A stretch of 64,000 nucleotides of DNA from Clostridia bacterium (GTDB lineage: Bacteria > Bacillota > Clostridia > Oscillospirales > SIG627), in the NCBI GenBank assembly GCA_017520825.1, contig JAFXEX010000014.1, positions 69,118 to 133,117 of the forward strand, in the 5' to 3' direction. Within the stretch, counting starts at the first letter, position 1; each line of letters opens with the position of its first letter. Shown piece after piece: positions 9,805 to 64,000 of this stretch. The translations under genes and the position numbers were made by a program. The notes under the pieces are model-generated. The model saw only the letters and a program-made list of their open reading frames with translations, had not been told where the DNA came from and made no database searches.

Positions 9805-10145
9805 ATAAGGCGGGAGTTTTGGAGGGAAAATCGTCAATTGCGAAGCCGTCTCCGACTCACTACACCCTCACACACTGTTCGGGTTTCGTTCCCTGTATGG
9901 CTTGAATTTTTGCTCGATTCGCTAATTCGCTACTCGGCAAAAATCCTCCGCACAGCCGTACAAAGGTACGCCAGTGCGAGCAAGGGGCGAAGAAAATGAA
10001 ATTTTCACAGATGGGAGAAAGCGAAGCTTTCTACATTGGAAAACTTGCAACGCACGTGATGTGTGTCGCACCATACTTTAGTGAGAAACCTTGCAGAAAA
10101 TCATAAAACCTTTTCATTTTCGGTTTTCACCCAAAAGACACGCCA
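9805..10145 (+). mobile_element. L element copy 1 (MITE-like), carrying a nested N element
   Basis: It shares the ...GGCGGGAGTTTTGGAGGGAAAATCG... left end, the GAAGAAAATGAAATTTTCACAGATGG.AGAAAGCGAAGCTTTCTAC core and the TTTTCATTTTCGGTTTTCACCCAAAAGACACGCC right end with other copies. It ends 1 nt from the hemW stop codon. Confidence 0.8.
9850..9954 (+). repeat. N element copy 1 (~105 bp) inserted inside L copy 1
   Basis: It interrupts GAAGCCGT|AGCCGTAC of the L consensus. It is near-identical, in reverse complement, to 29547-29651. Confidence 0.8.
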
Positions 10146-11261
10146 TCAAAGAGCTTCAAAAATTTTCACAATTACAGAATTTGAAACGAAGAAGCCCTTA
10201 TGGGTAAGGGAAAGAACGCCGTTGTCATATTTGCAAAGCCCTGCGTCTACAAGCTCTCTTGCCGTTATTTCAAATTGGTGGGTAATTCTTACGCCGTATT
10301 CCTTTTCAAGCCGTTGAAGGTTCAGACCGTCACTCAGACGGAGGGACAGAAAGATAAACTCCTCGGCTCTGTCCTCGGGGGTATTGGTGTAGCTGTCAAG
10401 GCGCCTTGCCTCGTTACAAAAGGCTGAAATATCCGAGGGCATAGAATATCGCACGCCTTCAAAATAGGAATGAGCTGACGCACCTATCCCTATATATTCC
10501 TCTGCCTGCCAATACTTCATATTGTGTCGGGAACGGAAGCCGTCTTTTGCAAAATTTGATATTTCATAATGCTCGAAGCCTGCCTGCGAAAGCCTTTCGC
10601 AGGCCGAAAAATACATCTCTGCTTCAACGTCCTCGTCGGGAAGAAATAGATTTTCACCACGCCTTTGCTTTACGCCGAAAACGGTCTTGTCCTCTATGCT
10701 CAATGCATACGTGGAAATATGCTGTACTCCCAATGATAGGGCAGTGTCAAGCCCCTTGGTAAAGCTGTCAAGGGTCTGACGCGGGAGGGCGAACATAAGG
10801 TCTATTGAAATATTATCAAAGCCAGCCTCTTGCGCTCTTTTTACAGTGTCAACGGCATCTTGGGCAGTGTGTCCTCTGCCAAGCTCCTTAAGCTCGGTGT
10901 CCGAAAAGCTCTGAACACCAAGGCTGAGTCGGTTAATTCCTGCCGATTTAAAGGCTTTCAGCTTTTCGCCCTCGTTTACCGACATGGGATTTGCTTCAAG
11001 GGTTATTTCGGCGTTTTTGTCCACGTCAAAGGAAGTGTAGACGGCATCAAGCAGTTTTTCAAGCTCGCTCCCACTCATCAGGGAGGGGGTGCCACCACCG
11101 AAATAGACGGTATCAACAGATATTCCTTTATAAGCCTTTATTTCACGGCAGAGAGCGTCAATATACTCGCCCTTGCGTGAGCCGTCAGCCAGAGAATAAA
11201 AGTCACAGTAATTGCACTTCTTACGGCAAAAGGGGAAGTGGATATAGAGTCCCTTATTCAT
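10146..11261 (-). CDS. hemW: Radical SAM heme chaperone HemW / coproporphyrinogen-III-oxidase-like
   Basis: It contains the canonical [13 protein letters not shown] (CX3CX2C) motif and lies downstream of lepA, as in Bacillus. I place the start at the ATG at 11261 (MNKGLYIHF...), which overlaps the lepA stop (ATGAATAA). The longer listed ORF runs antisense-free through the lepA 3' end. Confidence 0.85.
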
Positions 11262-13062
11262 CGTCAAATTTAAGCACTGCCATAAACGCCTCGTGGGGCA
11301 CTTCAACGGTACCCAGTGAGCGCATCTTCTTTTTACCCTCTTTTTGCTTTTCAAGAAGCTTCTTCTTACGGGTAATGTCACCACCGTAGCACTTGGCAAG
11401 CACGTCTTTTCTCATTGCCTTTACGGTCTCTCTTGCAATAACCTTACCACCGATTGCTGCCTGAACGGGAATTTCAAAGAGCTGACGGGGAATGTTTTCC
11501 TTTAATTTTTCAACGATTTTACGGGCTCTGCCGTATGCCTTTTCCGTATGGACGATAAAGGAGAGAGCGTCCACCATGCTTCCGTTGAGAAGAATGTCAA
11601 GCTTTACAAGGCTGGACTTTTCATAGCCTGCAAGCTCGTAGTCAAGGGAAGCGTAGCCCTTGGTGCGAGATTTGAGAGCGTCGAAAAAGTCGTATATGAT
11701 TTCGTTAAGGGGAAGTGCGTAGTGAAGCTCGGCACGGTCCGAGGTAATGTACTTCATATCCTTGAATACACCTCGTCTCTCCTGACAAAGCTCCATTATA
11801 GTGCCTACGTAGTCAACGGGGGTGAAGATGGTCGCTTTTACGATAGGCTCGCAGGTTTCCTCTGCCTCGTCACCTGTAGGGAAGTTTTGTGGGTTGTCGA
11901 TGTATTTGACCTCGCCGTTCTTCATAACGATTTTATAAATAACGCCGGGTGCCGTGGTAATAAGGTCCAGATTGAACTCACGCTCAAGTCTGTCCTGAAT
12001 AACCTCCATATGCAGAAGTCCGAGAAATCCACATCTGAAGCCAAAGCCCAGAGCTATTGAGCTTTCTGCCTCAAACATAAGGGCAGCGTCGTTGAGCTGA
12101 AGCTTTTCAAGAGCGTCTCTCAAATCGCCGTATCTTGCGCCGTCGGCAGGGTAGATGCCACTGTAAACCATGGGGAGAGCCTTTTTGTAGCCGGGGAAGG
12201 CTTCCTCGGTTTGATTTTCTGCAAGGGTTACGGTGTCGCCAACGTCGGTTTCGGAAAGTGATTTTATGCTGGCTGTGACGTATGCAACCTCACCTGCCAT
12301 AACGCAGTCACGCTTTTCAAGACCGAAGGGGCGAAGATGTCCAACCTCCACCACGTCGAATTCTGCGCCCGTGTTCATCATACGGATTCTGTCTCCTGCC
12401 GAAAGCTTGCCGTCAAAAATTCTCACGTAAACTATAACGCCTCGGTAGGAGTCGTAAACGGCATCGAAGATAAGAGCCTTCAAGGGCTTGGTTATATCAG
12501 CCTTGGGGGCAGGAATATCCCTTACTACTGCCTTTAAAACGTCCTCTACGTTAAGTCCCGTCTTTGCTGAAATGCAGGGCGCATCCTCGGCAGGTATGCC
12601 GATAACGTCCTCGATTTCCTGCTTCACCTTGTCGGGCTGGGCAGAGGGCAGGTCGATTTTATTGATAACGGGGATAATTTCAAGGTCGTTGTCAAGGGCG
12701 AGGTAGGTGTTGGCAAGGGTTTGCGCTTCAATTCCCTGTGACGCGTCAACCACCAGCAGAGCGCCCTCGCAGGCAGACAGTGAGCGTGACACCTCGTAGT
12801 TAAAGTCAACGTGACCGGGGGTGTCGATAAGGTTGAGGGAATATACCTCACCGTCGTCAGCCGTATATTCAAGCTTAACGGCGCGCGCCTTGATGGTGAT
12901 GCCTCTCTCTCTTTCAAGCTCCATATTGTCCAGAAGCTGTTCCTCCATCTCACGATGGCTGACGGTACCCGTAGTCTCTAAAAGACGGTCTGCCAGAGTG
13001 CTTTTACCGTGGTCAATATGTGCGATTATTGAAAAATTCCTGATGTTTTCGGGTTTGTACAT
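11254..13062 (-). CDS. lepA: Elongation factor 4 (LepA)
   Basis: It has the [16 protein letters not shown]1 motif, DTPGHVDF, and a full-length 602-aa LepA-type sequence. Confidence 0.95.
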
Positions 13063-13101
13063 CTATTTTCCTCTATATAAATAAAATTAATTTTAAAATT
13101 C

Positions 13102-13129: not shown

Positions 13130-13151
13130 TTATTTTCGGACGTGCCGAAAA

Positions 13152-23340: not shown

Positions 23341-23379
23341 ACTTATAGGAAACTGCATAAAATCAGAATTGCCATTTAA

Positions 23380-23515
23380 GAAAATGCAAAATTAACAATT
23401 AACAGTGCACAGTTAATGATAATTTCGCTATGCGAAATTTTCTTTGATTGAAAATTTGCCAAGGGCAAATTAACGTTCATTCTGCATTGTGCATTGTGAA
23501 TTCTGCATTTAATTG
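23380..23515. repeat. Hairpin/heptad module (H)
   Basis: It contains AATTTCGC-TAT-GCGAAATT (23421-23439), AATTTGCC-AAG-GGCAAATT (23453-23471) and TGCATTG-type repeats (ctgcattgtgcattgtgaattctgcatt). Confidence 0.75.
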
Positions 23516-27778: not shown

Positions 27779-27794
27779 TATTCCCTTCGGGAGT

Positions 27795-27870
27795 TAAGGT
27801 TGATTTGCTTCGCAAATCTTCAATCGAAGAAAATTTCGCATAGCGAAATTTTCTTCGATTGTTCATTGTG
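27795..27870. repeat. Hairpin module (H) including a perfect 19-bp-stem hairpin
   Basis: It contains GATTTGC-TTC-GCAAATC (27802-27818) and CAATCGAAGAAAATTTCGC-ATA-GCGAAATTTTCTTCGATTG (27821-27861). Confidence 0.85.
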
Positions 27871-27880
27871 CATTAAAAAA

Positions 27881-27907
27881 GCAAGACGGTTTTCCGTCTT
27901 GCTTTTT
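27881..27907. terminator. Bidirectional terminator between ispE and SBP paralog 1
   Basis: AAAAAA-GCAAGACGG-TTTT-CCGTCTTGC-TTTTT. Confidence 0.85.
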
Positions 27908-27910
27908 GTT

Positions 27911-29389
27911 TTATCCCAGCTTGTCGAATGCGCGAAGTACCTTCTTGAGCTGAACTCTCGCATTTGGGTATTTCTTTGCGTAGAAAGATTCAAAGTTTTC
28001 AATCTTCTGGTCAATCATATTATTAACGGTGTAGCCGTAGCCGTGGAATCCGTCGTATATGAAGCCGAAGTCGAAGTAACGGTAGTCAAGAATTATATCC
28101 AGAACAACCTTTGATTCGGAGTCACGGAGATATCTTGTTTTAAGAGCCGTTTCATAAATGGTGGGAGTGATGGTCTTCCACGATTCATAAGCCAGCGCCT
28201 CGGTGCAGACACCGATAAATTCAAGGTCCTTAGCCGTCTTGGGCACGCAGGAAACTGTGTGCTCACCGTAAACGTGTGAGTAGTAATTTTTCTGATGCTC
28301 GTCCCACTTGGGATAGGGGAGAATTCCGTAATCGTCCTCAAAGTTACGAAGTCCGTTTGCCATAACGCTTCCAAGGAAAATAGGAGTTATAATGGACTGC
28401 TTGTTAAGGAACAGATAAATCTCCTCGGTGTCATCCTCACTTGCACCGATACCCGTGGTATTGTAGTAGAAGTCAAAGAGGGTCTGCATAATGTTATTGA
28501 TTTTATCGGTTTTGATTGAAAACTGAGGTACACCCTCCTCATCCTTTTGAATGATGGGGTTGTCGAATGCCCACAGCCATGCGTTTGCCTTACTGTTGGC
28601 TCCAAACAGACCACCGTAGAAGTCACCGTTTGAGCGTGTGCCCGAGCCGTCGGAATCGACGTAGATATCCTTGAGCATATCGTACATAGCGTCATAGGTC
28701 CACTTGCCGTCAAGAACCAGCTCGTAGAGGTTGCCAAGGTCGTATGCTGCTGCAAGATTCTTGTTGAATACCAGAGCGCAGGTAGAGGTGATAGAGTTTA
28801 CGTTGATATCTGAAATGGCAAGAATACATTTGCCGTCGTATGTAAGCTCGGTTGAGGTGGAAGCTGCCCACCAAGGCTTTGAAAAGTCAACGTGGGGGAT
28901 ATCGTACCAGTTAAGGAAAAGGTTTTTGGTCGTCAGGTTGGCGCAGGTCATAACGTGAGCGACGATAAGGTCGAATTCATCGGTACCCGAAAGAATAGAC
29001 TTTGACACGTATTCGCTCATGGTGTTGATGTCGGCAGCGTATGCAAGCTCAAGATTACAGTTGAGCTTTGCTTCAACGGCTTCGTTTCTCGTTGCCTTTG
29101 CGTCCTTAACAAGGTCACCCTTGTTTATATCTGCTTCTGCAGGGAACATTTCATATCCGTCGTTGTGGCATACAACTCGGAGTGTCTTGCCCTCAAAATC
29201 ATATTCGTCAAGTCCGTCGTCGGTAGCGGCACGCTCTGCAAAAATGTCGCCCTCCTGAAATACGGCTTCATTGTTATTGTTTGTAGGTTTTTTCGTGGTT
29301 GTTTCCTCTTCACCACACGAGGTGAGTGTCAGCATTATGCAGGAAAGCAACATAACGCACGCTAAAATCAGCGCAGTTAATCTCTTCAT
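27911..29389 (-). CDS. Extracellular solute-binding lipoprotein (large family-1-like), paralog 1, orphan
   Basis: It has a lipobox LTLTSCG and is 492 aa long. By eye, roughly nine in ten residues are identical to the 30028 gene. No transporter genes are adjacent. Confidence 0.8.
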   Translation of the reverse strand: MKRLTALILACVMLLSCIMLTLTSCGEEETTTKKPTNNNNEAVFQEGDIFAERAATDDGLDEYDFEGKTLRVVCHNDGYEMFPAEADINKGDLVKDAKATRNEAVEAKLNCNLELAYAADINTMSEYVSKSILSGTDEFDLIVAHVMTCANLTTKNLFLNWYDIPHVDFSKPWWAASTSTELTYDGKCILAISDINVNSITSTCALVFNKNLAAAYDLGNLYELVLDGKWTYDAMYDMLKDIYVDSDGSGTRSNGDFYGGLFGANSKANAWLWAFDNPIIQKDEEGVPQFSIKTDKINNIMQTLFDFYYNTTGIGASEDDTEEIYLFLNKQSIITPIFLGSVMANGLRNFEDDYGILPYPKWDEHQKNYYSHVYGEHTVSCVPKTAKDLEFIGVCTEALAYESWKTITPTIYETALKTRYLRDSESKVVLDIILDYRYFDFGFIYDGFHGYGYTVNNMIDQKIENFESFYAKKYPNARVQLKKVLRAFDKLG

Positions 29390-29546: not shown

Positions 29547-29651
29547 TGTGCGGGGGATTTTTGCCGAGTAGCGAATTAGCGAATCGAGCAAAAATTCAAG
29601 CCATACAGGGAACGAAACCCGAACAGTGTGTGAGGGTGTAGTGAGTCGGAG
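29547..29651 (-). repeat. N element copy 2
   Basis: It is the reverse complement of 9850-9954, with only one or two differences seen by eye. Confidence 0.8.
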
Positions 29652-29750
29652 AATTAAGGATAATTTCGTCGTGCGAAATTTACAATTAATGAAGATTTGC
29701 CAAAGGCAAATCAACCTTAATTGTGAATTGTATATTGTGCATTGTGCATT
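29652..29750. repeat. Hairpin/heptad module (H)
   Basis: It contains AATTTCG-TCGTG-CGAAATT (29662-29680) and GATTTGCC-AAA-GGCAAATC (29694-29712), followed by ttaattgtgaattgtatattgtgcattgtgcatt. Confidence 0.75.
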
Positions 29751-29756
29751 AAAAAA

Positions 29757-29780
29757 GCAAGAGGAAGTCCTCTTGCTTTT
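29757..29780. terminator. Bidirectional terminator (paralogous to 27881-27907)
   Basis: AAAAAA-GCAAGAGG-AAGT-CCTCTTGC-TTTT. It lies about 250 nt beyond the stop of SBP paralog 2, and that gap is occupied by L copy 2. Confidence 0.8.
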
Positions 29781-29784
29781 GTTT

Positions 29785-30023
29785 AAACGGCGCACAGATT
29801 TGGAGATAAAATCGTCAATTGCGAAGCCGTAGCCGTACTTACGTACGGCAGTGCAAGCAAGGGACGAAGAAAATGAAATTTTCACAGATGGAATAAAGCG
29901 AAGCTTTCTACCTAAAAAGTCTGTGGCAATGAAGAAGTGTGTTCACGCCTTGTGACAGTCGCGAACACACTATTTTAACTTTATTTATATTTTCATTTTC
30001 GCTTTTAGCCCAAATATGAAGCC
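29785..30023 (+). mobile_element. L element copy 2 (Lb subtype, GGCTTCATATTTGGGCT terminus)
   Basis: It has a full core, (G)AAGAAAATGAAATTTTCACAGATGGAATAAAGCGAAGCTTTCTAC, with termini AACGGCGCACAGATTTGG... and ...CCAAATATGAAGCCGTT. The equivalent site is absent downstream of paralog 1. Confidence 0.85.
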
Positions 30024-30027
30024 GTTA

Positions 30028-31518
30028 TTATCCCAGCTTGTCGAATGCGCGTATTACCTTCTTGAGCTGAACCCTTGCATCGGGGTATTGCTTTGCGTAG
30101 TATGACTCAAAGTTTTCAATTTTCTGCTCAAGCATATTCTTAACGGTGTAGCCGTAGCCGTGGAAGCCGTCGAATACAAAGCCGAAATCGAAGTAACGGT
30201 AGTCAAGAATTATATCGAGAACAACCTTTGATTCAGAGTCACGGAGATATCTCGTTTTAAGAGCCGTTTCGTAAATGGTGGGAGTGATAGTCTTCCACGA
30301 TTCGTAAGCCAACGCCTCGGCGCAGACACCGATAAATTCAAGGTCCTTGGCAGTCTTGGGTACGCAGGAAACTGTGTGCTCACCGTAAACGTGTGAGTAG
30401 TAATTTTTCTGATACTCGTCCCACTTGGGATAGGGGAGAATTCCGTACTCGTCCTCGAAGTTACGAAGTCCGTTGCCCATAACGCTTCCCAAAGTGATGG
30501 TGGTCATAATGGACTGCTTGTTAAGGAACATAGCAAATTCTTCGAAATCGTCATCGTCGGGGCTTGAGCCGATACCCGTGGTGTTGTAATAGAAGTCGAA
30601 GAGAGTCTGCATAATGTTGTTGATTTTGTCGGTCTTGATTGCAAATTGAGGGATACCCTCCTCGTCCTTCTGAACGATGGGGTTGTCGAACGCCCAGAGG
30701 AATGCATTTGCTCTGTTGTTGATTTCAAACGTACCACCGTAGAAGTCGCCGTTTGAGCGTGTACCCGAGCCGTCGGAGTCAATGTAAACGTCCTTGAGCA
30801 TATTGTACATAGTATCATAGGTCCACTTGCCGTCAAGAACCAGCTCGTAGAGGTTGCCAAGGTCGTACGCTGCCGCAAGATTCTTGTTGAAGGCAAGGGC
30901 GCAGGTAGAGGTAATAGCGTTTACGTTGATATCGGAGATGGCAAGAATACATTTGCCGTCGTAGGTAAGCTCAGTTGAGGTTGAAGCTGCCCACCAAGGC
31001 TTTGAAAAGTCTACGTGGGGGATTTCGTACCAGTTAAGGAAAAGGTTTTTGGTTGTAAGGTTTGCACAGGTCATAACGTGGGCTACCACAAGGTCGAACT
31101 CATCAGTACCCGAAAGAATAGATTTTGAAATGTATTCGCCCATTGTAGTAATGTCGGCAGCGTAAGCAAGCTCAAGATTACAGTTAAGCTTTTCTTCAAC
31201 TGCTTCGTTTCTCTTTGCCTTTGCATCTTTTACAAGGTCGCCCTTGTTTATATCAGCTTCTGCAGGGAACACCTCGTATCCGTCGTTGTGACAAACTACT
31301 CGGAGTGTTTTTCCCTCGAAGTCCCATTCGTCAAGTCCGTCGTCGGTAGCGGCACGCTCTGCAAAAATGTCGCCCTCCTGGAATACGGAGTCGTTGTTGT
31401 TATTATTGTTTGTAGGATTTTTCGTAGTTGTTTCCTCTTCACCGCATGAGGTGAGTGTCAGCATCATGCAGGAAAGCAACATAACGCACGCTAAAATCAG
31501 CGCAGTTAATCTCTTCAT
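30028..31518 (-). CDS. Extracellular solute-binding lipoprotein, paralog 2, orphan
   Basis: It has the same lipobox and architecture as 27911-29389, and is 496 aa long. Confidence 0.8.
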   Translation of the reverse strand: MKRLTALILACVMLLSCMMLTLTSCGEEETTTKNPTNNNNNNDSVFQEGDIFAERAATDDGLDEWDFEGKTLRVVCHNDGYEVFPAEADINKGDLVKDAKAKRNEAVEEKLNCNLELAYAADITTMGEYISKSILSGTDEFDLVVAHVMTCANLTTKNLFLNWYEIPHVDFSKPWWAASTSTELTYDGKCILAISDINVNAITSTCALAFNKNLAAAYDLGNLYELVLDGKWTYDTMYNMLKDVYIDSDGSGTRSNGDFYGGTFEINNRANAFLWAFDNPIVQKDEEGIPQFAIKTDKINNIMQTLFDFYYNTTGIGSSPDDDDFEEFAMFLNKQSIMTTITLGSVMGNGLRNFEDEYGILPYPKWDEYQKNYYSHVYGEHTVSCVPKTAKDLEFIGVCAEALAYESWKTITPTIYETALKTRYLRDSESKVVLDIILDYRYFDFGFVFDGFHGYGYTVKNMLEQKIENFESYYAKQYPDARVQLKKVIRAFDKLG

Positions 31519-38173: not shown

Positions 38174-38335
38174 GGCTTCATATTTGGGCTAAAAGAAGCA
38201 ATTGATAATTGAAAATTGAAAGTTGAAAATTCAGGTTGATTTGCTTCGCAAATCTTCAATCAAAGAAAATTTCGCACGGCGAAATTGTCCTTAATTGTGC
38301 ATTGTGCATTGTTAATTGTTAATTGTTAATTAGCG
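38174..38335. repeat. Composite repeat: Lb terminus fragment + 7-nt tandem repeats + hairpins + 7-nt tandem repeats
   Basis: The order is GGCTTCATATTTGGGCTAAAAG, then AATTGAT/AATTGAA/AATTGAA/AGTTGAA/AATTCAG, then GATTTGC-TTC-GCAAATC, then AATTTCGC-ACG-GCGAAATT, then ATTGTGC/ATTGTGC/ATTGTTA/ATTGTTA/ATTGTTA/ATTAG. The last repeats run into the dxr 3' end. Confidence 0.85.
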
Positions 38336-46774: not shown

Positions 46775-46860
46775 GAAAGTTGAAAATTGAGAATTGAAAG
46801 TTGAAAATTAAGGAAAATTTGCCAAAGGCAAATTCACCTTAATTCTGCATTCTGCATTTA
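46775..46860. repeat. Heptad + hairpin module (H) between glgA and glgP
   Basis: gaaagttgaaaattgagaattgaaagttgaaaatt is followed by AATTTGCC-AAA-GGCAAATT (46816-46834), then ttaattctgcattctgcatt. Confidence 0.8.
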
Positions 46861-46861
46861 T

Positions 46862-48307
46862 TTAACCCAAAAGACCTGCCGTAAGCTCATATAACTTTAT
46901 ATAGCTATTAGCCGATGACTTCCACGAGAAGTCGGTTCTCATTATCTTATAAACGAGTCTGCGTCTCAGCTCCTCATTTTTGTAGAGCGTGAGCGCTGCC
47001 TCTGTTCGTTCTTTAAGCTCGCCTGCGTTGTAGCCTGCAAAGGTAAAGCCGTTTCCGTTGATTTTGTTATCCTTTATCCAGAAGGGCTTGATAGAGTCGT
47101 AGAGACCACCCGTTTCACGCACTACGGGGATTGCGCCGTAGCGTGAGGCTATCATCTGCGACAGACCACAGGGCTCACTCTTTGAGGGCATAAGGAATAT
47201 ATCGGTAGCCGAATATATTCTCTTTGACAAATCTCTGTCGTAGGTTATGAGAGCTCTTACCTTTTGAGGAAAACGCTCCTGAAGGTAGGTAAAGAACTGC
47301 TCGTAGCGTTCTTCTCCCTTGCCGAGAATAACCAGCTGAATATCGTGGCTTGCTACAATATCATAAATGCAACCTTCAATTATGTCAAGTCCCTTGTGAG
47401 ATGCAAGTCGTGAAATTATTGAAAGAAGGGGCACGTCAGCCCTCTCGTCAAGACCAAGCTCACGCTGAAGAGCCGATTTGCACACTGCTTTTCCGTCGGT
47501 GTTTACCGATGAGAAGGTCTCAGCAATGGAAGGGTCTGATTTGGGGTCGTAATATTTGTAGTCAATGCCGTTGAGTATGCCCGAAAGCTTGTGGGCGTTG
47601 TTGTTAAGGCAGGTGTGCAGACCGTGGGCGTATTCGGGGGTCCGTATCTCCTCGGCATAGCGAGGACTGACCGTGGTAACTCTGTCTGCTTCCTCAATAG
47701 CGCCCTTCATCAGATTTATACATCCGTCGTATTCCATAAGGGAATATTCGTTTTCCGAAAGGGCGAACACGTCACCGAGAATGGAGAAGTCGTACTTTCC
47801 CTGATACTCTATATTGTGTATGGTGAATACGGATTTAATGCCCTGATATTCGGGGCGTTTTTTATATATACGGTTCAGGTATACTACAGTAAGTGCCGTC
47901 TGCCAATCGTGTGCGTGGAGAATATCGGGGTAGAAATCAAGCGCCGACATAGCCTCCATAACTGCCATTGAAAAATAAGCGTAGCGTTCACCGTCGTCGA
48001 AAAAGCCGTAAAGAGACTCTCTCTTGAAGTAGTATTCGTTGTCTATAAAATAGTAGGTGACTCCGTTCTTTTTCAGACTGTATATACCACAGTATTGTTT
48101 TCTCCAGGCAAGGGGAACGGAGATTATTGCCTCTTCATGCATCTCCTTGCGATATTCTTCCTTGATTGCAGAATAAAGGGGAATAATTACTCTTACGTCA
48201 AGGTCATGGCTTTTCGCCAGGGCAGACGGAAGTGAGCCGAGAACGTCACCCAGTCCTCCCGTTGCAGCGAAGGGCATTGCCTCGGCGCCTGCAAATAATA
48301 GTTTCAT
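46862..48307 (-). CDS. glgA: Glycogen synthase
   Basis: It has the N-terminus MKLLFAGAEAMPFAATGGLGDV. The last 8 codons plus the stop (ELTAGLLG*) are encoded by TTAACCCAAAAGACCTGCCGT, a near copy of the La element terminus. Confidence 0.93.
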   Translation of the reverse strand: MKLLFAGAEAMPFAATGGLGDVLGSLPSALAKSHDLDVRVIIPLYSAIKEEYRKEMHEEAIISVPLAWRKQYCGIYSLKKNGVTYYFIDNEYYFKRESLYGFFDDGERYAYFSMAVMEAMSALDFYPDILHAHDWQTALTVVYLNRIYKKRPEYQGIKSVFTIHNIEYQGKYDFSILGDVFALSENEYSLMEYDGCINLMKGAIEEADRVTTVSPRYAEEIRTPEYAHGLHTCLNNNAHKLSGILNGIDYKYYDPKSDPSIAETFSSVNTDGKAVCKSALQRELGLDERADVPLLSIISRLASHKGLDIIEGCIYDIVASHDIQLVILGKGEERYEQFFTYLQERFPQKVRALITYDRDLSKRIYSATDIFLMPSKSEPCGLSQMIASRYGAIPVVRETGGLYDSIKPFWIKDNKINGNGFTFAGYNAGELKERTEAALTLYKNEELRRRLVYKIMRTDFSWKSSANSYIKLYELTAGLLG

Positions 48308-48320
48308 ATAGTATCTCCTG

Positions 48321-48562
48321 ACGGCGTGTCTTTTGGGTTAAAACCGAAAATGAAAAGGTTATAAAACCTTTTACAATAGTTCTCCCAAGAAGTAAAGTGC
48401 GAACACACCACACCTTTGTTATTAGTTTTTGATGTAGAAAGCTTCGCTTTCTTCCATCTGTGAAAATTTCATTTTCTTCGCGTGTTGCTCGGACTGGCGT
48501 ACCCTTGTACGCCTACGCCTTCGCACTCCGCGATTTTCCCTCCAAAACTCCCGCCTTTTACG
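48321..48562 (-). mobile_element. L element copy 3 (La subtype, ACGGCGTGTCTTTTGGGT terminus)
   Basis: Its terminus starts 13 nt upstream of the glgA ATG and directly abuts the glgA RBS (CAGGAG). The full core is present. Confidence 0.85.
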
Positions 48563-48602
48563 GCAGTGTATGGAGAGTTGCGTTGGTTACAAAAATTTAA
48601 TT

Positions 48603-48734
48603 GGAAATTTCCGAAGGAAATTGTCCATAACGTTGACGAAGTCAACATATCGCGTGCGAAGCACATATCGCGTTTGCAAAGCAAACATATCACTCGTCGA
48701 AGACGAATATCACTGCAGAATGCACGGCATTCTG
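48603..48734. repeat. Tandem array of diverse mini-hairpins with GAA/AAA/ACG triloops separated by a constant 7-nt spacer ATATC(G/A)C
   Basis: AATTTCC-GAA-GGAAATT; GTTGAC-GAA-GTCAAC; atatcgc GTGC-GAA-GCAC; atatcgc GTTTGC-AAA-GCAAAC; atatcac TCGTC-GAA-GACGA; atatcac TGCAGAATGC-ACG-GCATTCTG(ta); tatcac. The array ends 2 nt from the glgD stop codon. Confidence 0.85.
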
Positions 48735-51062: not shown

Positions 51063-51089
51063 TATGCTTTCCTCCTAATATATAGCCTT

Positions 51090-51335
51090 ACGGCGTGTCT
51101 TTTGGGTGAAAACCGAAAATGAAAGTTTTTTAATTCTTTACATTGTCTCTCCCAAAAGTTAAGCGCGAACACACAACACGAGTGTTGCAAATTTTCTAAT
51201 GTAGAAAGCTTCGCTTTCTTCCATTTGTAAAAATTTCATTTTCTTCGCCCCTCCCTCGCACTGCCGTACAGGTGTACGGCGACGGCTTCGGGATTGACAA
51301 ATCTCCCGCCAAACCTGCTACCTTTTGTAGCGTGT
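51090..51335 (-). mobile_element. L element copy 4 (La subtype)
   Basis: The terminus ACGGCGTGTCTTTTGGGTGAAAACCGAAAATGAAA lies about 28 nt upstream of the glgC ATG, just beyond its GGAGG RBS. Confidence 0.85.
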
Positions 51336-51416
51336 GGTTAGGAATTACTCTTTGCCACAAAAACTTTAACGGGGAATTTCCGAAGGAAATTGTCCTTAAT
51401 TGTGCATTGTGCATTG
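51336..51416. repeat. Hairpin/heptad module (H)
   Basis: AATTTCC-GAA-GGAAATT (51375-51391) is followed by gtccttaattgtgcattgtgcattgttaatt, which ends at the glgB stop codon. Confidence 0.8.
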
Positions 51417-53300
51417 TTAATTTTTAACTTGTTTAAACACTACTGCCGACAAGGGTGGCAGATGTATGCGTATTGCCTTGGAATAGCCACGAAGCATACA
51501 GTCCTCGGTCTTTTTTATACCCTTATTCAGTTTGTTTCCACCACCGAAGTCCTCGCTGTCACTGTTCAGCACCTCTTTCCAGCGTCCCTCGGGTACGCCT
51601 AAAAGAAAGTCGGGATAGTCCACGGGGGTGAAGTTGATTATTACGGCAAGCTCCTTGCCCTTTTTGTCAATTCTCCGATAGGATGCAATGCTCTGCTGGG
51701 CGTTGTCGGCGTCTATCCACTCAAAGCCGTCCCACGTGCCGTCCTGCTCCCATAGGGCAGGGCTTTCAAGATAAAAGGAATTCAGTCGGGCAACGTACTC
51801 CTGAAGCTGAGCGTGCCTTTCATAATCGGTGAGAAACCACTCGATAGCGCCCTCGTAGTCCCATTCCCTGAACTGACCGATTTCGCATCCCATAAAGAGA
51901 AGCTTTTTGCCGGGGTGGGTCATCATATAGGTGAGAAAGGCTCTCGTGCCTGCAAATTTATTTTCATATTCACCTGGCATTCTGTCCAGAAGAGATTTCT
52001 TGCCATGCACCACCTCGTCGTGAGAAATGGGCAACAGATACCTTTCGGAAAAGGCGTAGGACAGTGAAAAATTGATTTTGTTGTGGTGGTACTTTCTGAA
52101 AAGTGGGTCCTCCTCGGCATAGGCGAGGGTATCGTTCATCCACCCCATATTCCATTTAAGAGTAAAGCCAAGGCCACCGTTTTCAAAGCCCGTAACGTTG
52201 GCAAAGGCTGTAGACTCCTCGGCTATGGTCATAACGTCGGGGAAGTCCCTGGCAAGACATCCGTTAAGCTTACCGAAGAACGCCATAGCCTCAAGGCACT
52301 TGTTATCTCCGTAAACGTTGGGCACCCATTCACCCGGGCGCTTGTCGTAGTCAAGGTAGAGCATAGACGCCACGGCGTCAACCCGAAGTCCGTCTATATG
52401 ATATTTTTCTATCCAATAATAAGCGTTTGAAACGAGAAAGCTCTGTACCTCCTCCCGTCCCACGTCAAAGCGTCTCGTACCCCAGCCCTCGTGCTCCATT
52501 CGGTCAATGCCCTGATACTCGTAGAGAGGCTGACCGTCAAACTCGTAAAGTCCGTGAGCGTCCTTGGGAAAGTGGGCAGGAACCCAATCGAGAATGACAC
52601 CGATGCCTGCCTCGTGCATCTTGTCCACGAAATACATAAAGTCCTCGGGCGTGCCAAAGCGTGAGGTGGGGGCGTAATAACCACACACCTGATATCCCCA
52701 GGAGCCGTCAAAGGGATGCTCTGCAATGGGCATCAGCTCAACGTGGGTGTAGCCCATCTGCTTTGCGTACACCGAAAGGTCGTCGGCAAGCTCACGGTAG
52801 GTGAGGTAGGAGCCGTCCTCGTGCTTTTTCCATGAGGCAGGATGCACCTCGTAGATATTGAGAGGGGAGGACATTACCTTGTCTCTGGTATAGCGTTTTT
52901 TTCTGTATTTCAGAAAGGATGCGTCATGCCAAGTATATTCGGGAATGGGAAATATAATACTTGCAGTTTCGGGAGGAGTCTCGGCATAGGTCCCGTAGGG
53001 GTCTGCCTTGAAAAGCTCCTTGTAGCCGTTTTTGATAAAATATTTGTATTTCTGATTGACCGTGGCGCTGTCGCTTACAGCCTCCCATATGCCTGCCTCG
53101 GTTATTCGGGTCATAGGAAGGGCGTAGCAGTCCCATCCGTTAAAGTCGCCTGCAACGGATACGAAGTCTGCGTTGGGCGCCCATACCCTGAAGCAGAATT
53201 TTCCGTTTTCAAGGTGACATCCCAGATAGTCGAAGGCGTGAGTACTCGTTCCCTGGTGAAAGTAGTAGGGAGCAAGGCTTGTGGAATTCTGAGCCGTCAT
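51417..53300 (-). CDS. glgB: 1,4-alpha-glucan branching enzyme
   Basis: It is a GH13 branching-enzyme pattern (GLRVDAVASMLY, MTIAEEST), 627 aa long, and the first gene of the glg cluster. Confidence 0.93.
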   Translation of the reverse strand: MTAQNSTSLAPYYFHQGTSTHAFDYLGCHLENGKFCFRVWAPNADFVSVAGDFNGWDCYALPMTRITEAGIWEAVSDSATVNQKYKYFIKNGYKELFKADPYGTYAETPPETASIIFPIPEYTWHDASFLKYRKKRYTRDKVMSSPLNIYEVHPASWKKHEDGSYLTYRELADDLSVYAKQMGYTHVELMPIAEHPFDGSWGYQVCGYYAPTSRFGTPEDFMYFVDKMHEAGIGVILDWVPAHFPKDAHGLYEFDGQPLYEYQGIDRMEHEGWGTRRFDVGREEVQSFLVSNAYYWIEKYHIDGLRVDAVASMLYLDYDKRPGEWVPNVYGDNKCLEAMAFFGKLNGCLARDFPDVMTIAEESTAFANVTGFENGGLGFTLKWNMGWMNDTLAYAEEDPLFRKYHHNKINFSLSYAFSERYLLPISHDEVVHGKKSLLDRMPGEYENKFAGTRAFLTYMMTHPGKKLLFMGCEIGQFREWDYEGAIEWFLTDYERHAQLQEYVARLNSFYLESPALWEQDGTWDGFEWIDADNAQQSIASYRRIDKKGKELAVIINFTPVDYPDFLLGVPEGRWKEVLNSDSEDFGGGNKLNKGIKKTEDCMLRGYSKAIRIHLPPLSAVVFKQVKN

Positions 53301-53375: not shown

Positions 53376-53704
53376 CACTCCTGTAAATATTTTTGTTCAG
53401 CTTTTTTAAAAATATAGCAATTTTAACAAAGGAAGCGAGAAATATTTCACGAAATTCGCCGTGAATTTATGCTTTTTTAAAAAACCTCAAAAATTTGTCA
53501 CAAAAGCCTCTCTTTTTTGCAAATCAGGGTTAACAAAAATATTTTTTGAAATATATGAAAACAAAGAAAATATTTTGGCAAAATGTCAAAAAAGCACCTT
53601 GATTATTCGGCAACAAAGTTGTAGAATATGTGAAGCAAAGCTTTGGCAATTGAAAATTAAAAATTTACAATCATTACGTATCAAAAGTAATCCTCAATCC
53701 ACGC

Positions 53705-53947
53705 TATAAAAGGCGAGAATTTTGGAGGTAAAATCGTGGAGTGCGAAGGCGTAGGCGTACAATGGTACGCCAGTCCGAGCAACACGCGAAGAAAATGAAA
53801 TTTTCAAAATGGAAGAAAGCGAAGCTTTCAACATCAGAAAAACTTATAACAAGGATGTGGTGTGTTCTCACTTTGCTTCTTGGGAGAGAAAATGCAAAAG
53901 GGTATAAAGCCTTTTCATTTTCGGTTTTAACCCAAAAGACACGCCGT
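53705..53947 (+). mobile_element. L element copy 5 (La subtype)
   Basis: It has a full core. Its right terminus ...CCCAAAAGACACGCCGT is immediately followed by AAGGAG, the RBS of the YitT-family gene. Confidence 0.85.
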
Positions 53948-53958
53948 AAGGAGAATAT

Positions 53959-54792: not shown

Positions 54793-54798
54793 TAGTAA

Positions 54799-55042
54799 GG
54801 CTTCATATTTGGGCTAAAACCGAAAATGAAATGATAATTATATTTTGACGATAGTGTGTTCGCGAGTGCAATAAAGCGTGAACACACTTCTTCATTGTTA
54901 CAAACTTTTCAAGGTAGAAAGCTTCGCTTTCTTTCATCTGTGAAAATTTCATTTTCTTCGCCCTTTGCTCGCACTGCCGTACACTTGTACGGCTACGGCT
55001 TCGCAATTGACGATTTTATCTCCAAATCTGCGCGCCTTTACG
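54799..55042 (-). mobile_element. L element copy 6 (Lb subtype)
   Basis: It starts 7 nt after the YitT-family stop. It is nearly identical to copy 7 and is followed by another GGCTTCATATTTG fragment (55042-55053). Confidence 0.85.
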
Positions 55043-55100
55043 GCTTCATATTTGAGAATGCACAATGCACTGTGCATTGATAAAAATACGCTTCGTAACC

Positions 55101-55177: not shown

Positions 55178-57925
55178 ATGAAAAAGTTTACTGTTTTAGT
55201 TTTACTTATACTTTCTCTCGTTATGACGGCGTGTGCGCCCTCTGAAAGCGTTTCGGGAGGAAACCAAGACTCTGAGGCAACCGACGTTCAGGGCGAGCAA
55301 GAGGGGGAAGAGCTTGTGGTTCCCGAGGAGCCCGTAGCTTCGGAAGAGCCTGAAATTTATGAAGATTTACCCGTTCCCGAGGAGCCAAAGTATCTTCTCA
55401 CCGTAGAGGGAGTTACCCTTGAAAACGGCGAGAGCTTAAAGGCTTTTGAATTCGGCGAGAGCGTTACCCTCGTTGCCCAGGATAAGGAGAACGCAGTTTT
55501 CCTTTATTGGCAGGAAAATGGAAGCATACTCACAAACGCCAAGACTCTGTCGGTGACGGTGGAAAGCGACAGATTTATAAAAGCCGTATACGCTGAAAAA
55601 TCACAGGGTGAGCTTGAATTCAACACCGAGGACGGCAAGACCTATTACGTTGCAGGTATTGGAAGCGTTTCGGGAGATACCCTTATTATCCCCGATACCT
55701 ATAACTCCAAGCCCGTTACAAAAATTGCAATGACTGCATTTAAGGATAATACGCAGATTAAGACGGTTGTTATCCCCGATACCGTTACAAGCATTGGCAA
55801 GAATGCTTTTTCGGGATGCACCTCACTTGAATATATAAGCATTCCGTCATCGGTGGAGAAGATAGAGGCAAACGAGCTTTCGGACTGCACCTCTCTTAAA
55901 ACCGTAGCCCTTGGAATTAATATGGATATACCCCTTGGCATTAATTCCGTACAGACCGTTTTCATTACCGAAGGAGTTGAGAAAATCAACTTTGAAGGTC
56001 TGAAAAACGTCAAGGCAGTATTCCTGCCCGAAAGCGTTAAGGAAATAGATGACAACGCCTTTAAAAACTGTGCCTCTCTCATTAAGGTTAATATTCCCGA
56101 GGGCATTGAGAGTATCGGCGATATGGCATTCTACGGCTGTCACTCGCTGGGAAATATAGATTTCCCCAAATCACTTAAAACGATAGGCGAATACGCATTT
56201 TTCCAATGCCGTTCAATGACGGAGCTGAACCTGCCCCAGCTTTTATCAATGGGTGACGGCGCATTTGAAGCCTGCAAGGGAATAACTTCTCTCACACTTC
56301 CCGACAGTCTTTTGACTCTGCCCGAATACGCATTTACGGGCTGTGTCGGACTTAATCGCGTTACTCTTGGCAGAAACGCTACGGAGATTGGAAAGAGCGC
56401 CTTCAAAAATTGTGAAAGACTTACTGAAATAGCGCTTCCCGATACTCTTATGGTTATCGGTGGTGACGCCTTTAAGGGATGCGTTGCCCTTTCGGATATT
56501 TCACTTCCCCATAACGTTACTGAAATGGGAGCAGGCGTGTTCGAGGACTGTAGCGCTTTGACCAAGATTTCTTTGCCCGAAAGACTCTACAAAATCAGTG
56601 AATACTCATTCAGAAGCTGTACCTCGCTCAGAGAGATAACCGTTTGCGTCAACACCAAGAAAGCCGAAATGGGAGCGTTTAACGGCGTTGATAAATTCAA
56701 CGCAACGGTGTACTATAACGGTACTCAGAGCGAGTGGGAGAAGAGCTTTGCAGGGGCGTCTGCCTTTGAAGAAATGGTAATGAAATTCCAGGCGAACACC
56801 CACTATGATTTTGACAGTGGACTCAGATATACCTCAAACGGCGACGGTACCTGTCACGTAGGCAGAATAGACGGCGCAGAGCTTACCGTGTCAGAGCTGA
56901 TTATCCCCGAAAAGAGCCCCAAGGGTGATATAATTACCCATATAGACAAGGACACCTTTAACTCTAACCAGAATATCAAGACGCTGGTTATAGAAGCGCC
57001 TCTTGAGTATATTCCTACAGGCGCATTTTCAAACTGCCTTGAACTTGTCAGCGTTACCTTGCCCGAGACGGTTGAAATAATTGATGATACTGCCTTTGCA
57101 AACTGCTATTCTCTTACCTCAATCAATCTTCCCGAGGGTGTGAGAATTATCGGGGACCGAGCATTTGATTACTGTCAAAGCATAGAAAGCCTGGTACTCC
57201 CCACAGGACTTGAAGTAATAGGGGAGAGCGCCTTTACGGGCTGTAAGTCCCTTAAGGAAGTAACCTTTGGTGAAAACGTAAAAAGCGTGGACAGATACGC
57301 ATTCTCCTTCTGTCAGTCGCTTGAAAAAATCAATATGAACTGTGTTGATACCGTGTTCGGCTCAAGCGTCTTTACCACCAATTCCAATGCGTCGGTATAC
57401 TACGGAAAGGGACTGGATGGTTGGCTCTCACTTGATATGAAGTTCGGCTTGCTTTCAAACGGCATGAAGCTCTTTATTGACGGAGCAGAGCTGACTGAGG
57501 TGGTTATACCCGAAAGCGTTACCGAGATAAAGGAATACGCATTTTCAAACGTTAAGAGCCTTAAAAAAGTAGTTTTCCACGATGGCGTTAAGAAGGTCGG
57601 TGGAGGTGCGTTTTACTACTGCTCGGGACTTGAGGAAATTCTTCTTCCCGAAGGATTGACCGAGATTGAGACAGGATCTTTTGCATATTGTGACAGAGTT
57701 TCACGTCTTGTAATCCCTGCAAGCGTTACCTATATGAGCGAGTCCGCCTTCACGGGTACGGGCTTTGACGAAATTTACTACAACGGAACCAGAGACGATT
57801 GGTATTCCGTAAACAGCCTTAAAAAGTCCGGTCTGGGCTATACTGTCATCTGGTACAGTGAGGAACAGCCAACTGCCAAGGGCTATTATTGGCGTTGGGT
57901 GGATTCCCAGCGAGTTAAGTGGTGA
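55178..57925 (+). CDS. BspA-type leucine-rich-repeat surface lipoprotein (915 aa)
   Basis: It has a lipobox LVMTACAP, an acidic linker, and many repeats of the AF..C..L..I.IP.SV..IG..AF type. Confidence 0.85.
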   Translation: MKKFTVLVLLILSLVMTACAPSESVSGGNQDSEATDVQGEQEGEELVVPEEPVASEEPEIYEDLPVPEEPKYLLTVEGVTLENGESLKAFEFGESVTLVAQDKENAVFLYWQENGSILTNAKTLSVTVESDRFIKAVYAEKSQGELEFNTEDGKTYYVAGIGSVSGDTLIIPDTYNSKPVTKIAMTAFKDNTQIKTVVIPDTVTSIGKNAFSGCTSLEYISIPSSVEKIEANELSDCTSLKTVALGINMDIPLGINSVQTVFITEGVEKINFEGLKNVKAVFLPESVKEIDDNAFKNCASLIKVNIPEGIESIGDMAFYGCHSLGNIDFPKSLKTIGEYAFFQCRSMTELNLPQLLSMGDGAFEACKGITSLTLPDSLLTLPEYAFTGCVGLNRVTLGRNATEIGKSAFKNCERLTEIALPDTLMVIGGDAFKGCVALSDISLPHNVTEMGAGVFEDCSALTKISLPERLYKISEYSFRSCTSLREITVCVNTKKAEMGAFNGVDKFNATVYYNGTQSEWEKSFAGASAFEEMVMKFQANTHYDFDSGLRYTSNGDGTCHVGRIDGAELTVSELIIPEKSPKGDIITHIDKDTFNSNQNIKTLVIEAPLEYIPTGAFSNCLELVSVTLPETVEIIDDTAFANCYSLTSINLPEGVRIIGDRAFDYCQSIESLVLPTGLEVIGESAFTGCKSLKEVTFGENVKSVDRYAFSFCQSLEKINMNCVDTVFGSSVFTTNSNASVYYGKGLDGWLSLDMKFGLLSNGMKLFIDGAELTEVVIPESVTEIKEYAFSNVKSLKKVVFHDGVKKVGGGAFYYCSGLEEILLPEGLTEIETGSFAYCDRVSRLVIPASVTYMSESAFTGTGFDEIYYNGTRDDWYSVNSLKKSGLGYTVIWYSEEQPTAKGYYWRWVDSQRVKW

Positions 57926-57926
57926 C

Positions 57927-58169
57927 GGCTTCATATTTGGGCTAAAACCGAAAATGAAATGATAATTATATTTTGACGATAGGATGTTCGCGACTGTTAG
58001 AAAGCGTGAACACACTTCTTCATTGTCACAGACCTTTTAAGGTAGAAAGCTTCGCTTTCTTTCATCTGTGAAAATTTCATTTTCTTCGCCCCTTGCTTGT
58101 ACTGCCGTACACTTGTACGGCTACGGCTTCGCAATTGACGATTTTATCTCCAAATCTGCGCGCCTTTAC
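57927..58169 (-). mobile_element. L element copy 7 (Lb subtype)
   Basis: It starts 2 nt after the LRR stop codon, in the same orientation as copy 6, and differs from copy 6 at only scattered positions. Confidence 0.85.
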
Positions 58170-58265
58170 AGCTTCATATTTGCGATAAAACCGAAAATGA
58201 AAATATAAATAAAGTTAAAGTAGTGTGTTTGCGTTTGCAATAAAGCGTGAACACATCACTTTTTG
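58170..58265 (-). repeat. L element copy 8, terminal fragment only
   Basis: AGCTTCATATTTGCGATAAAACCGAAAATGAAAATATAAATAAAGTTAAAGTAGTGTGTTTGCG...GCGTGAACACA matches the terminal ~95 bp of Lb copies 2 and 9. Confidence 0.7.
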
Positions 58266-58504
58266 TTACAGGCTTTCCTCAACCCTTAACCTCTCCAAGT
58301 GTAATAGGTACGTGCGTGCCTATCTACTCTATCTGTTCTATCTATATTATCTATTATATCTATATTTGTGTCATTCTGTTGTTTTTTTGTTGTCGTTCTG
58401 TTGTCATTTTGTTGTCATTCTGTTGTCAGAATTTTTAATGATGATGCTTAAAAGCCCTTTATATACAGAGGCTTTTGAGGTGTTTTTTGTTGTTGGATTT
58501 TGTG

Positions 58505-58590
58505 AAATTTTTAATCATTGAAAATTTGCCAACGGCAAATTAACATTAATTGTGAATTGTGCATTGTTAATTGGCAAAGCGTTGTGCATT
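58505..58590. repeat. Hairpin/heptad module (H)
   Basis: AATTTGCC-AAC-GGCAAATT (58523-58541) is followed by ttaattgtgaattgtgcattgttaattg. Confidence 0.75.
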
Positions 58591-60157: not shown

Positions 60158-60159
60158 TA

Positions 60160-61074: not shown

Positions 61075-61100
61075 TGAAGCATTGCTTCACTATATTTTTG
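61071..61100 (+). terminator. metA rho-independent terminator
   Basis: ATAGTGAAGC-ATT-GCTTCACTAT is followed by a T run. The stem overlaps the TAG stop. Confidence 0.85.
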
Positions 61101-61104
61101 TTTA

Positions 61105-61295
61105 TGGTTAAATTTGCCCTGACGGACAGGTTAAATTGCCATAGGCAGTTAAATATCGGCTTTGCCGATGGGATATTTTTCAAACAAGGGTTGAAAAGTT
61201 ATGGTTAATTTGCTTTGCAAATCTTCAATGATTGTAAATTTCGCAAAGCGAAATTGTCCTTAATTGTGCATTGTTAATTGTGAACTGTGTATTTA
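61105..61295. repeat. Extended hairpin module (H)
   Basis: It contains ATCGGC-TTT-GCCGAT, ATTTGC-TTT-GCAAAT and AATTTCGC-AAA-GCGAAATT, then gtccttaattgtgcattgttaattgtgaactg. Confidence 0.8.
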
Positions 61296-61324
61296 TTTTC
61301 GTTCTCACCCAAAAGACACGCCGT
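61296..61324 (+). repeat. La terminus fragment
   Basis: TTTTCGTTCTCACCCAAAAGACACGCCGT. Confidence 0.65.
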
Positions 61325-61377
61325 AAACACTAAATGTTGTATAGTTTTTTAAAAAAAATTGGAATATTATACCATAC

Positions 61378-61384
61378 TTCGACA
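61378..61384 (-). promoter_or_regulatory. Possible Spo0A box (TGTCGAA) upstream of spoIIE
   Basis: The minus strand reads TGTCGAA, about 80 nt upstream of the spoIIE ATG. In Bacillus, spoIIE is Spo0A-activated. This is a single 7-mer match only. Confidence 0.3.
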
Positions 61385-61459
61385 TAAGATATTATCTTTT
61401 AATGATATGCTAAAGGCAACCGAAAAAGAACGGTACAAATTAAAAGAAAGGAATTCTTT

Positions 61460-63946: not shown

Positions 63947-63954
63947 TATATTTC

Positions 63955-64000
63955 GGCTTCATATTTGGGCTAAAACCGAAAATGAAAAACAAATAAAGTT
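63955..64000 (-). mobile_element. L element copy 9 (Lb subtype), truncated by the window end
   Basis: GGCTTCATATTTGGGCTAAAACCGAAAATGAAAAACAAATAAAGTT starts 9 nt after the spoIIE stop. Confidence 0.75.

Follow-up and report, generated by a model that had tools for sequence, protein, structure and literature searches.

The 64,000-bp stretch of DNA described here (the window) is contained in an 84,480-bp metagenome contig (ENA ERZ27256864 k141_846071; the parent contig, L001) from an uncultured gut Clostridia/Eubacteriales lineage, and it carries multiple copies of a non-coding intergenic repeat that we refer to as L. The gene content includes PolC, RNase J1, SpoIIE and LepA as well as a glgP-glgA-glgD-glgC-glgB cluster, and marks the host as a spore-forming Firmicute. 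Its closest GTDB genomes are metagenome-assembled genomes (MAGs) of uncultured gut 'Eubacteriales/Clostridia/Oscillospiraceae', and because the top GlgC identity is only 86%, the host species itself lies outside the GTDB collection searched. Positions 1-9600 of the window form an island of 35% GC (34-38%) with no L copies inside it; the remainder is core DNA of ~46% GC.

Repeat finding and alignment recover seven full, ~245-bp copies of L in the window, in both orientations and all intergenic (Table 1). A sequence-only reading of this DNA had proposed positions for the L copies and fragments, and all of these hold, including those of a partial copy near 58170 and of four terminus fragments, each of which was recovered with a profile of the end that we call T. 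When the copy cut by the window end is counted there are eight full copies per 64 kb. They are 240-253 bp in length with pairwise identities of 64-94%, the two best-matching pairs being 94% and 91% identical. The motif AGAAAGCGAAGCTTTC, with up to two mismatches allowed, occurs seven times against 0.08 expected, and the 44-nt core that the copies had been said to share, GAAAGCTTCGCTTT-N10-14-AAAATTTCATTTTCTTCG, occurs seven times against an expectation of zero. Patterns for the T end and for the other L end are found nine and six times respectively, where 0-0.09 are expected. The copies are non-coding; all six frames are interrupted and no open reading frame (ORF) is kept across copies. A small protein (MKFSQME...) within L was considered and rejected, as the sole recurring short ORF is truncated or frameshifted in several copies, and a six-frame pseudo-protein of four L copies had no match among 5.8 billion proteins at E≤1e-3.

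Table 1. Copies of L, T fragments and neighbouring repeats; positions are those of the window unless another contig is named.
Feature	Position	Strand	Context
Full L, a-type ends	9805-10148	-	106-nt nested insert at 9849-9954; T end abuts TGA stop of radical-SAM/HemN-like gene
Full L, b-type ends	29785-30027	-	T end begins 1-4 nt past stop of lipoprotein gene 30028-31518
Canonical terminator hairpin	29745-29785	-	Beyond other end of L 29785-30027
Full L, a-type	48319-48561	+	glgD-glgA spacer; T end 12 nt from glgA ATG, only the Shine-Dalgarno sequence (SD) intervening
Full L, a-type variant	51088-51330	+	glgB-glgC spacer
Full L, a-type	53705-53951	-	5' untranslated region (UTR) of yitT, between conserved promoter 53599-53627 and SD
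Full L, b-type	54797-55041	+	Begins 6 nt past yitT stop codon
Full L, b-type	57925-58169	+	Begins at stop codon of leucine-rich repeat (LRR) gene; 94% identical to 54797-55041
Partial L (T end and b-type hairpin module)	58167-58255	+	Abuts full copy 57925-58169, same orientation
Eighth full L, only its start in window	63952-64000	+	Whole in parent contig (L001 12491-12742); 8 nt past spoIIE stop
Solo T joined to Q repeat	38174-38194	+	Directly upstream (other strand) of SD and ATG of gene 37120-38160
Solo T joined to Q repeat	46861-46884	-	Overlaps glgA 3' end; encodes last residues and stop (LTAGLLG-stop)
Second T (T')	55038-55054	+	Directly after full copy 54797-55041; then heptad repeats
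Solo T, a-type	61295-61326	-	At end of Q repeat, 134 nt upstream of spoIIE
Further T fragment, just outside window	L001 ~12876-12905		Overlaps 3' end of ypsA-like gene
Q repeat	23375-23512		
Q repeat	27792-27888		
Q repeat	29652-29750		
Q repeat	38195-38330		
Q repeat	46780-46860		
Q repeat	51386-51437		
Q repeat	58499-58573		
Q repeat	61190-61293		
Gut-1-like tandem hairpin array	48590-48722	-	Rfam match 48642-48715, 43.2 bits
Gut-1-like tandem hairpin array	61105-61181	+	33.7 bits
Gut-1-like tandem hairpin array	L092 4976-5054	-	44.8 bits

For description the copies are oriented with the T end first. This end reads ACGGC(GTGTCT/TTCATA)TTTGGG(TK/CT)AAAACCGAAAATGAAA, also written TTTGGG..AAAACCG, and is followed in order by a variable module, an invariant core, a GC-rich hairpin domain and an inverted end, CGATTTT..CTCCAAA(A/T)C....GCCTTTTAY. 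The variable module is a short AT hairpin in a-type copies and an 11-12-bp hairpin (GTGTGTTCGCG...CGTGAACACAC) in b-type copies, and the invariant core is GAAAGC-TTC-GCTTTC...AAAATTTCATTTTCTTCG. The imperfect terminal inverted repeats described in the sequence-only reading are indeed present, with a length of ~25 nt and 18-19 of 25 positions matching with one gap, as are both of its terminus subtypes (GGCGTGTCTTTTGGG and GGCTTCATATTTGGG) and its AGAAAGC-GAA-GCTTTCT hairpin. The two ends of a copy are matched in type. The outermost terminal pairs are GGCGTGT/GGCGGGA in a-type copies and GGCTTCA/GGCGCGCA in b-type copies, and in all eight copies of the window and parent contig the end type is identical at both termini, even where the interior is recombinant. 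A copy in a related locus of another species (L092) has both outermost heptamers shifted jointly, to GGTATCA/GGTATCA. The hairpin domain also comes in two versions (GCCGTAC/GTACGGC and GGCGTAC/GTACGCC), which assort independently of end type and thus show the copies to be recombinant mosaics; the copy at 63952, for example, combines b-type ends with an a-type interior.

With RNA and with DNA parameters alike, single copies of L fold far better than their shuffled counterparts (z of -4.7 to -6.1). A consensus structure for nine copies has 56 pairs in eight helices, with 97% of cells paired. Eleven of the pairs have changes on both sides, compared with 5.5±1.2 in column shuffles (none of 500 reaches 11) and 1-3 in slid controls. 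The closed structure comprises a terminal stem formed from both ends, the GC-rich hairpin domain (GCCGTAC/GTACGGC), a GAAAGC-GAA-GCTTTC hairpin and an invariant 10-bp long-range helix, GAAAATGAAA:TTTCATTTTC, a pairing that had been predicted earlier and is present. In the L092 copy two of the hairpins are rebuilt with different sequence through compensatory changes. The consensus energy is -47 kcal/mol on the strand that reads T last and -36 kcal/mol on its opposite, wobble pairs are mostly on the T-last strand (26 vs 4 cells, or 10 vs 4 pairs), and for a-type copies it is this strand that gives the better fold, by 7-14 kcal/mol. This modelled asymmetry gives a weak hint as to which strand matters, and does not distinguish RNA from single-stranded DNA.

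Comparison with related loci shows that relatives lack L at orthologous sites. Two of these loci, L091 and L092, each encode a YitT 78% identical to that in the window. The glgP and glgA genes overlap in L091 and are separated here by 110 nt filled by a solo T joined to a repeat of a second family, Q (see below); the glgA-glgD spacer is 14 nt in L091 and 429 nt in the window, where it is filled by L and a hairpin array, and the glgC-glgB spacer is 15 nt and 354 nt respectively, the latter filled by L and Q. The glgD-glgC spacer (11 nt and 13 nt) has nothing inserted. The short, empty operon spacers of the relatives indicate that the L copies are insertions. A further example is the glgB-yitT spacer, which is alignable over six species and has a yitT promoter (TTGATT-17-TAGAAT) conserved at 53599-53627; the copy at 53705-53951 lies between this promoter and the SD in the window species only and is absent from five related species. 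The alignment shows an insertion and not its exact junction; the yitT promoter region is the sole intergenic DNA of the nearest relatives that aligns, and the flanks downstream of yitT are non-syntenic.

The distribution of L is narrow. Copies at orthologous spacers are absent from L091, L090 and L093-L101, and from L092 save for one full copy in the glgA-glgD spacer, which matches the window copy in place and orientation; L092 lacks the other four copies, and its 93-nt glgB-glgC spacer has none. The closest species (L003/L090) has shorter, diverged variants of L. Searches with profiles and a covariance model, which covered ~1.4 Mb in ~90 related loci, brought up no relatives beyond those in L092 and L003/L090, and a covariance-model match in L030 was rejected as an ordinary terminator and gene start. 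In independent assemblies, several short contigs of this species stop within an L or Q repeat (at 23430, 27807, 61236 and 63983), assembly breaks that are consistent with repeats present at many loci.

The T end has features of a module in its own right. [quoted passage not shown] A second T, at 55038 and at 58167, lies flush after each of two full b-type copies, in the same orientation, and in L092 a T is found 17 nt after the copy. The T end also lies close to genes, being 0-26 nt from a coding-sequence boundary in eight of eight full copies, whereas 77-700 nt separate the other end from its nearest gene. Among full and solo occurrences combined, seven have the outer edge of T at or over a stop codon, and four have it 10-26 nt before a start codon, just upstream of the SD. 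T supplies the last 6-7 codons and the stop of both glgA (LTAGLLG-stop) and the ypsA-like gene (YGVSFG-stop), and the C-termini of orthologous GlgA proteins differ from LTAGLLG. Sequence that begins with T has stops in every frame within ~60 nt (~100 nt for one a-type frame), so that insertions at gene ends would be tolerated. Extremely compact ancestral spacers explain the placement at gene boundaries in part; that it is consistently the T end which lies there would allow for a targeted mechanism, HUH-like or site-specific.

We favour, with moderate confidence, the interpretation that L is a lineage-restricted family of small, non-autonomous, MITE-like mobile elements in an uncultured gut Clostridia/Eubacteriales genus. 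Copies have gone into the very short operon spacers and UTRs of housekeeping genes, and presumably an enzyme with its gene elsewhere in the genome would move them in trans, recognising the co-varying ends or a folded single strand. After insertion, L may persist as a structured UTR module and, like ERIC, Correia and bcr1 elements, might affect mRNA stability or processing.

Several observations weigh against this interpretation. There is no 2-10-bp direct repeat that would represent a target-site duplication (TSD) around any of nine copies. The other end of L was never found on its own and is confined to full copies, while T does occur solo, and if random intergenic DNA were entered by simple cut-and-paste, the bias of the T end to coding boundaries would not be predicted. 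The 5-6 contigs per gene available from several assemblies are 99.7-100% identical and showed no insertion polymorphism within the species. Dispersal of L beyond the 74-kb contig is something we infer: exact-pattern scans with the 44-nt core gave no match in GTDB species genomes, JGI metagenomes or IMG/VR, the GTDB pattern being too strict in that it demanded the GAAAGC hairpin that the L003 variant lacks, and JGI metagenomes and IMG/VR were equally without a match to a relaxed 40-nt pattern, one loose enough to take in the L003 variant. The claim that the window has no transposase gene is borne out, with no transposase domain among the called genes and likewise none in the 74 kb read, and no cognate insertion sequence (IS) or transposase for L was seen in those 74 kb, no genome-wide search having been made. 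Two genes (492 and 496 aa) that flank an L copy were considered as transposases and rejected, since both encode signal-peptide lipoproteins without a nuclease or transposase domain.

The lack of a TSD is what would be expected of a single-strand-specific HUH (Y1) enzyme, and it is possible, although we think it rather unlikely, that such an enzyme, a repetitive extragenic palindrome (REP)-associated tyrosine transposase (RAYT) or TnpA, acts on T, L, Q and the hairpin arrays, as in REP/BIME or IS200/IS605 systems. With the same modest probability, its recognition would be of hairpins folded on one strand, with insertion beside T-N-A-C and no duplication. The 4 nt preceding T are TTAC in five instances, TGAC in two, and TAAC, TTTC, GTAA, TGAT and CTGA in one each, and the distal side of L finishes in the element's own TTTTAC; the preference is nonetheless loose, and T-N-A-C overlaps stop codons. 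The tandem T that follows the copies at 54797-55041 and 57925-58169, and that in L092, would fit such a mechanism, as would the BIME-like mosaic of modules and the significant folding with DNA parameters. The GAA loops are closed by C-G, and GCGAAGC, an unusually stable DNA mini-hairpin, is present twice per copy. The concentration of G-T/G-U wobbles on one strand points the same way, but by pairs the asymmetry is only 10 vs 4, and it stems in part from the structure having been chosen on the T-last strand. Further, the ends of L are inverted copies that pair together, whereas those of IS200/IS605 are two subterminal hairpins on the same strand; a REP palindrome of 20-40 nt with a conserved GTAG-type head is missing; T itself is non-palindromic; and there is no Y1 gene in the window.

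Q is a second intergenic family made up of 7-nt arrays (AATTGTG/CATTGTG/AATTGTT or AATTGAA) around small hairpins (AAATTTCGC-nnn-GCGAAATT and AATTTGCC-nnn-GGCAAATT), with an inner inverted TTAAGG/CCTTAA. It is often joined to T or adjoins L, and contigs of other assemblies break at Q. The tandem hairpin arrays (two in the window and one in L092) have constant ATATCAC/GUGAAAU-type spacers, lie beside L or Q, and match the Gut-1 motif (Rfam RF01706) on the predicted transcribed strand, with all three matches below the gathering score of 50. The original description of Gut-1 (Weinberg et al. 2010, PMC2864571) gives its range as human gut only, from metagenomes, and considers a noncoding RNA likely. 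The arrays suggest that Gut-1-like motifs are modules of these repeats. The location of T at seven stops and before four starts, together with the apparent UTR specialisation of a- and b-type copies (see below), prompts the thought that T, L, Q and the Gut-1-like arrays form one lineage-specific system of mobile, structure-conserved UTR modules, with HUH-type or site-specific insertion at exact coding-sequence boundaries, a proposal that we regard as speculative and unlikely as it stands.

Of the a-type copies three, like the L092 copy, are found just upstream of an SD, in a 5'UTR or between cistrons, and are read T-last; the four b-type copies lie just past stop codons and are read T-first. 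At least two of the b-type copies are upstream of a canonical terminator (29745-29785 on the reverse strand, and L001 ~12800-12850). These positions between promoters, coding sequences and terminators suggest co-transcription with the flanking genes, and judging from the sequence all L copies are probably co-transcribed. Consensus scans show no enrichment of promoter or terminator sequences inside L. It could be supposed that L serves chiefly as a structured RNA with a function, either a cis-acting UTR element or a small RNA (sRNA), kept by selection on RNA structure, and the orientation pattern would then mean that 5'UTRs and operon spacers use the a-type and 3'UTRs the b-type; we consider both suppositions improbable. 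Each copy is inside an inferred transcription unit, compensatory changes are found within the genome and across species, a-type copies have their better fold on the predicted transcribed strand, b-type copies carry the extra 11-12-bp hairpin followed by a U-rich stretch, and the adjoining arrays resemble an RNA motif. However, conserved structure is equally expected if an enzyme recognises transposon ends or hairpins, the genes next to L have no function in common (glycogen synthesis, yitT, spoIIE, an LRR adhesin, a lipoprotein and a hemN-like gene), and relatives lack L at the same sites. Both orientations relative to transcription are represented, with the a-type copy at 9805 breaking the orientation rule, and L has no Rfam match. 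A riboswitch or leader was rejected as well, given unrelated downstream genes, both orientations and relatives without the element.

Local duplication and gene conversion within the region, in place of transposition and with the copies not dispersed, seems very improbable: all copies seen are within one 64-kb stretch, two pairs are highly similar, interiors are recombinant mosaics, and the copies a48314 and a53705 are similar for some tens of bases past the element, but copies are split by unrelated single-copy genes, occur in both orientations and are up to 36% divergent, related copies are present in two other species, and independent assemblies break at the repeats, as is typical of many-locus repeats. 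Tn3-type or ISL3-type ends and integron attC sites, considered as look-alikes of T or L, were rejected; there are no 5- or 8-bp duplications or core sites, and the flanks are housekeeping genes.

There are several other features of the region that we note. A 106-nt element, N, is present as two inverted copies (9849-9954 and 29547-29652) that are 99% identical. The first sits within the 9805-10148 copy of L, where it immediately precedes an internal ACGGCTTC that looks like the beginning of a T end; a nested element with so similar a second copy points to recent movement of another small element, as read from the sequence. The second N lies in the spacer between two tandem paralogous genes (27911-29389 and 30028-31518; 86-94% nucleotide identity in blocks), which also holds Q, a terminator and an L copy. 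These genes encode ~495-aa signal-peptide lipoproteins that belong to no Pfam or NCBIfam family and have widespread homologues in gut Clostridia MAGs, frequently in tandem too. A BspA-like LRR gene (55178-57925, with internal 138-nt repeats) has on either side one of the two L copies that are most alike, both in the same orientation; in L091 metY follows yitT directly with no LRR gene, and L092 has an LRR-like gene with no L copies beside it. The low-GC island at 1-9600 has a strong purine skew, adjoins tRNA-Glu (9633-9707), and encodes an SbcC/RAD50-like ATPase, a radical-SAM/SPASM protein, a BRCT-domain protein and several ORFs without a family match; it looks like a defence or accessory island, and a same-species contig from another assembly stops at 9628, the border of the island. 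Nucleotides 1-299 of L085 (ERZ27256853 k141_2709803) do not match the window and resemble the glgB of another species, joined at window position 52757, a junction that is probably an assembly chimera.

L can be classed as a new family among bacterial MITE-like structured intergenic repeats, outside any named family tested. Consistent with the earlier failure to recognise it, L has no match in Rfam (4227 families, HEARO and riboswitches among them, E≤1) or in BLAST searches of plasmids and phages; neither L nor the adjoining arrays reach an Rfam gathering threshold, the former having no match and the latter a sub-threshold one to Gut-1. L has the size (<~500 bp), non-coding character and terminal inverted repeats of bacterial MITEs and lacks the TSD, and as regards dispersal there are the eight full copies per 64 kb, the empty orthologous sites and the uniformity within the species. 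REP palindromes are imperfect, 20-40 nt long with a conserved 5' tetranucleotide and often arranged as inverted doublets, whereas T is non-palindromic and L is a 245-nt multi-helix unit; palindrome-associated transposable elements (PATEs) derived from IS200/IS605 have no inverted termini, whereas the ends of L pair with each other as helix 1 of the structure. Such PATEs also insert 3' of a fixed tetra- or pentanucleotide with no duplication; L shows no duplication, and most often TTAC, among other tetranucleotides, before T.

By analogy, L is most like bcr1, ERIC and Correia-type elements, and its modular neighbourhood resembles BIMEs. The bcr1 repeats of the Bacillus cereus group are ~155 bp with a TTTAT duplication. 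Like L they are small, non-coding, multi-copy intergenic elements of Firmicutes, located in transcribed regions, with a stable structure supported by compensatory changes and a copy number that differs among related species; L differs in its ~245-bp length, the lack of a visible duplication and of sequence similarity, and its membership of a multi-module mosaic. ERIC/IRU of enterobacteria (127 bp) and the Correia elements of Neisseria (NEMIS/CREE, which have a TA duplication and known promoter and integration host factor sites) are likewise imperfectly palindromic with ~25-nt inverted ends, and are located in transcribed intergenic DNA, often directly past stops, where co-transcribed stem-loops affect mRNA fate, as those of L may by analogy. 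In contrast to these, L has an internal multi-helix architecture and not one long hairpin, has no TSD, and is from another phylum. The BIME/REP and REPIN-RAYT systems, as in E. coli, share with L a mosaic of short hairpin modules in extragenic transcribed DNA, single or clustered and without TSD, although L has no REP palindrome, is far longer and more complex, and has no RAYT gene in the window. Gut-1 shares the gut Clostridia habitat and matches the arrays beside L on the transcribed strand (34-45 bits), but these matches are in a neighbouring module and below threshold.

Repeat families of this sort are well known from cultured model bacteria and, to our knowledge, are essentially undescribed in uncultured gut Clostridia. 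L leaves current concepts unchanged, and what is gained is a well-characterised family together with its oddities, the bias of T to gene boundaries and the lack of a TSD. Its points of interest are the strongly conserved multi-helix fold, ends that co-vary without a TSD, the boundary placement of T, and the Gut-1-like neighbours. The association of arrays with Gut-1 suggests a host and a repeat-element context for this orphan motif, and if all of the modules do belong to a single system, the orphan Gut-1 'sRNA' would be one repeat module and not a stand-alone RNA gene. For the genomes that carry them, such repeats break metagenome assemblies and inflate intergenic space, with three glg spacers of 0-15 nt in a relative being 110-429 nt here, and the T end motif can rewrite the last codons of genes. 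Insertion of L places ~245 nt of structured RNA in the 5'UTRs, operon spacers and 3'UTRs of core genes, where it could alter mRNA stability and operon stoichiometry.

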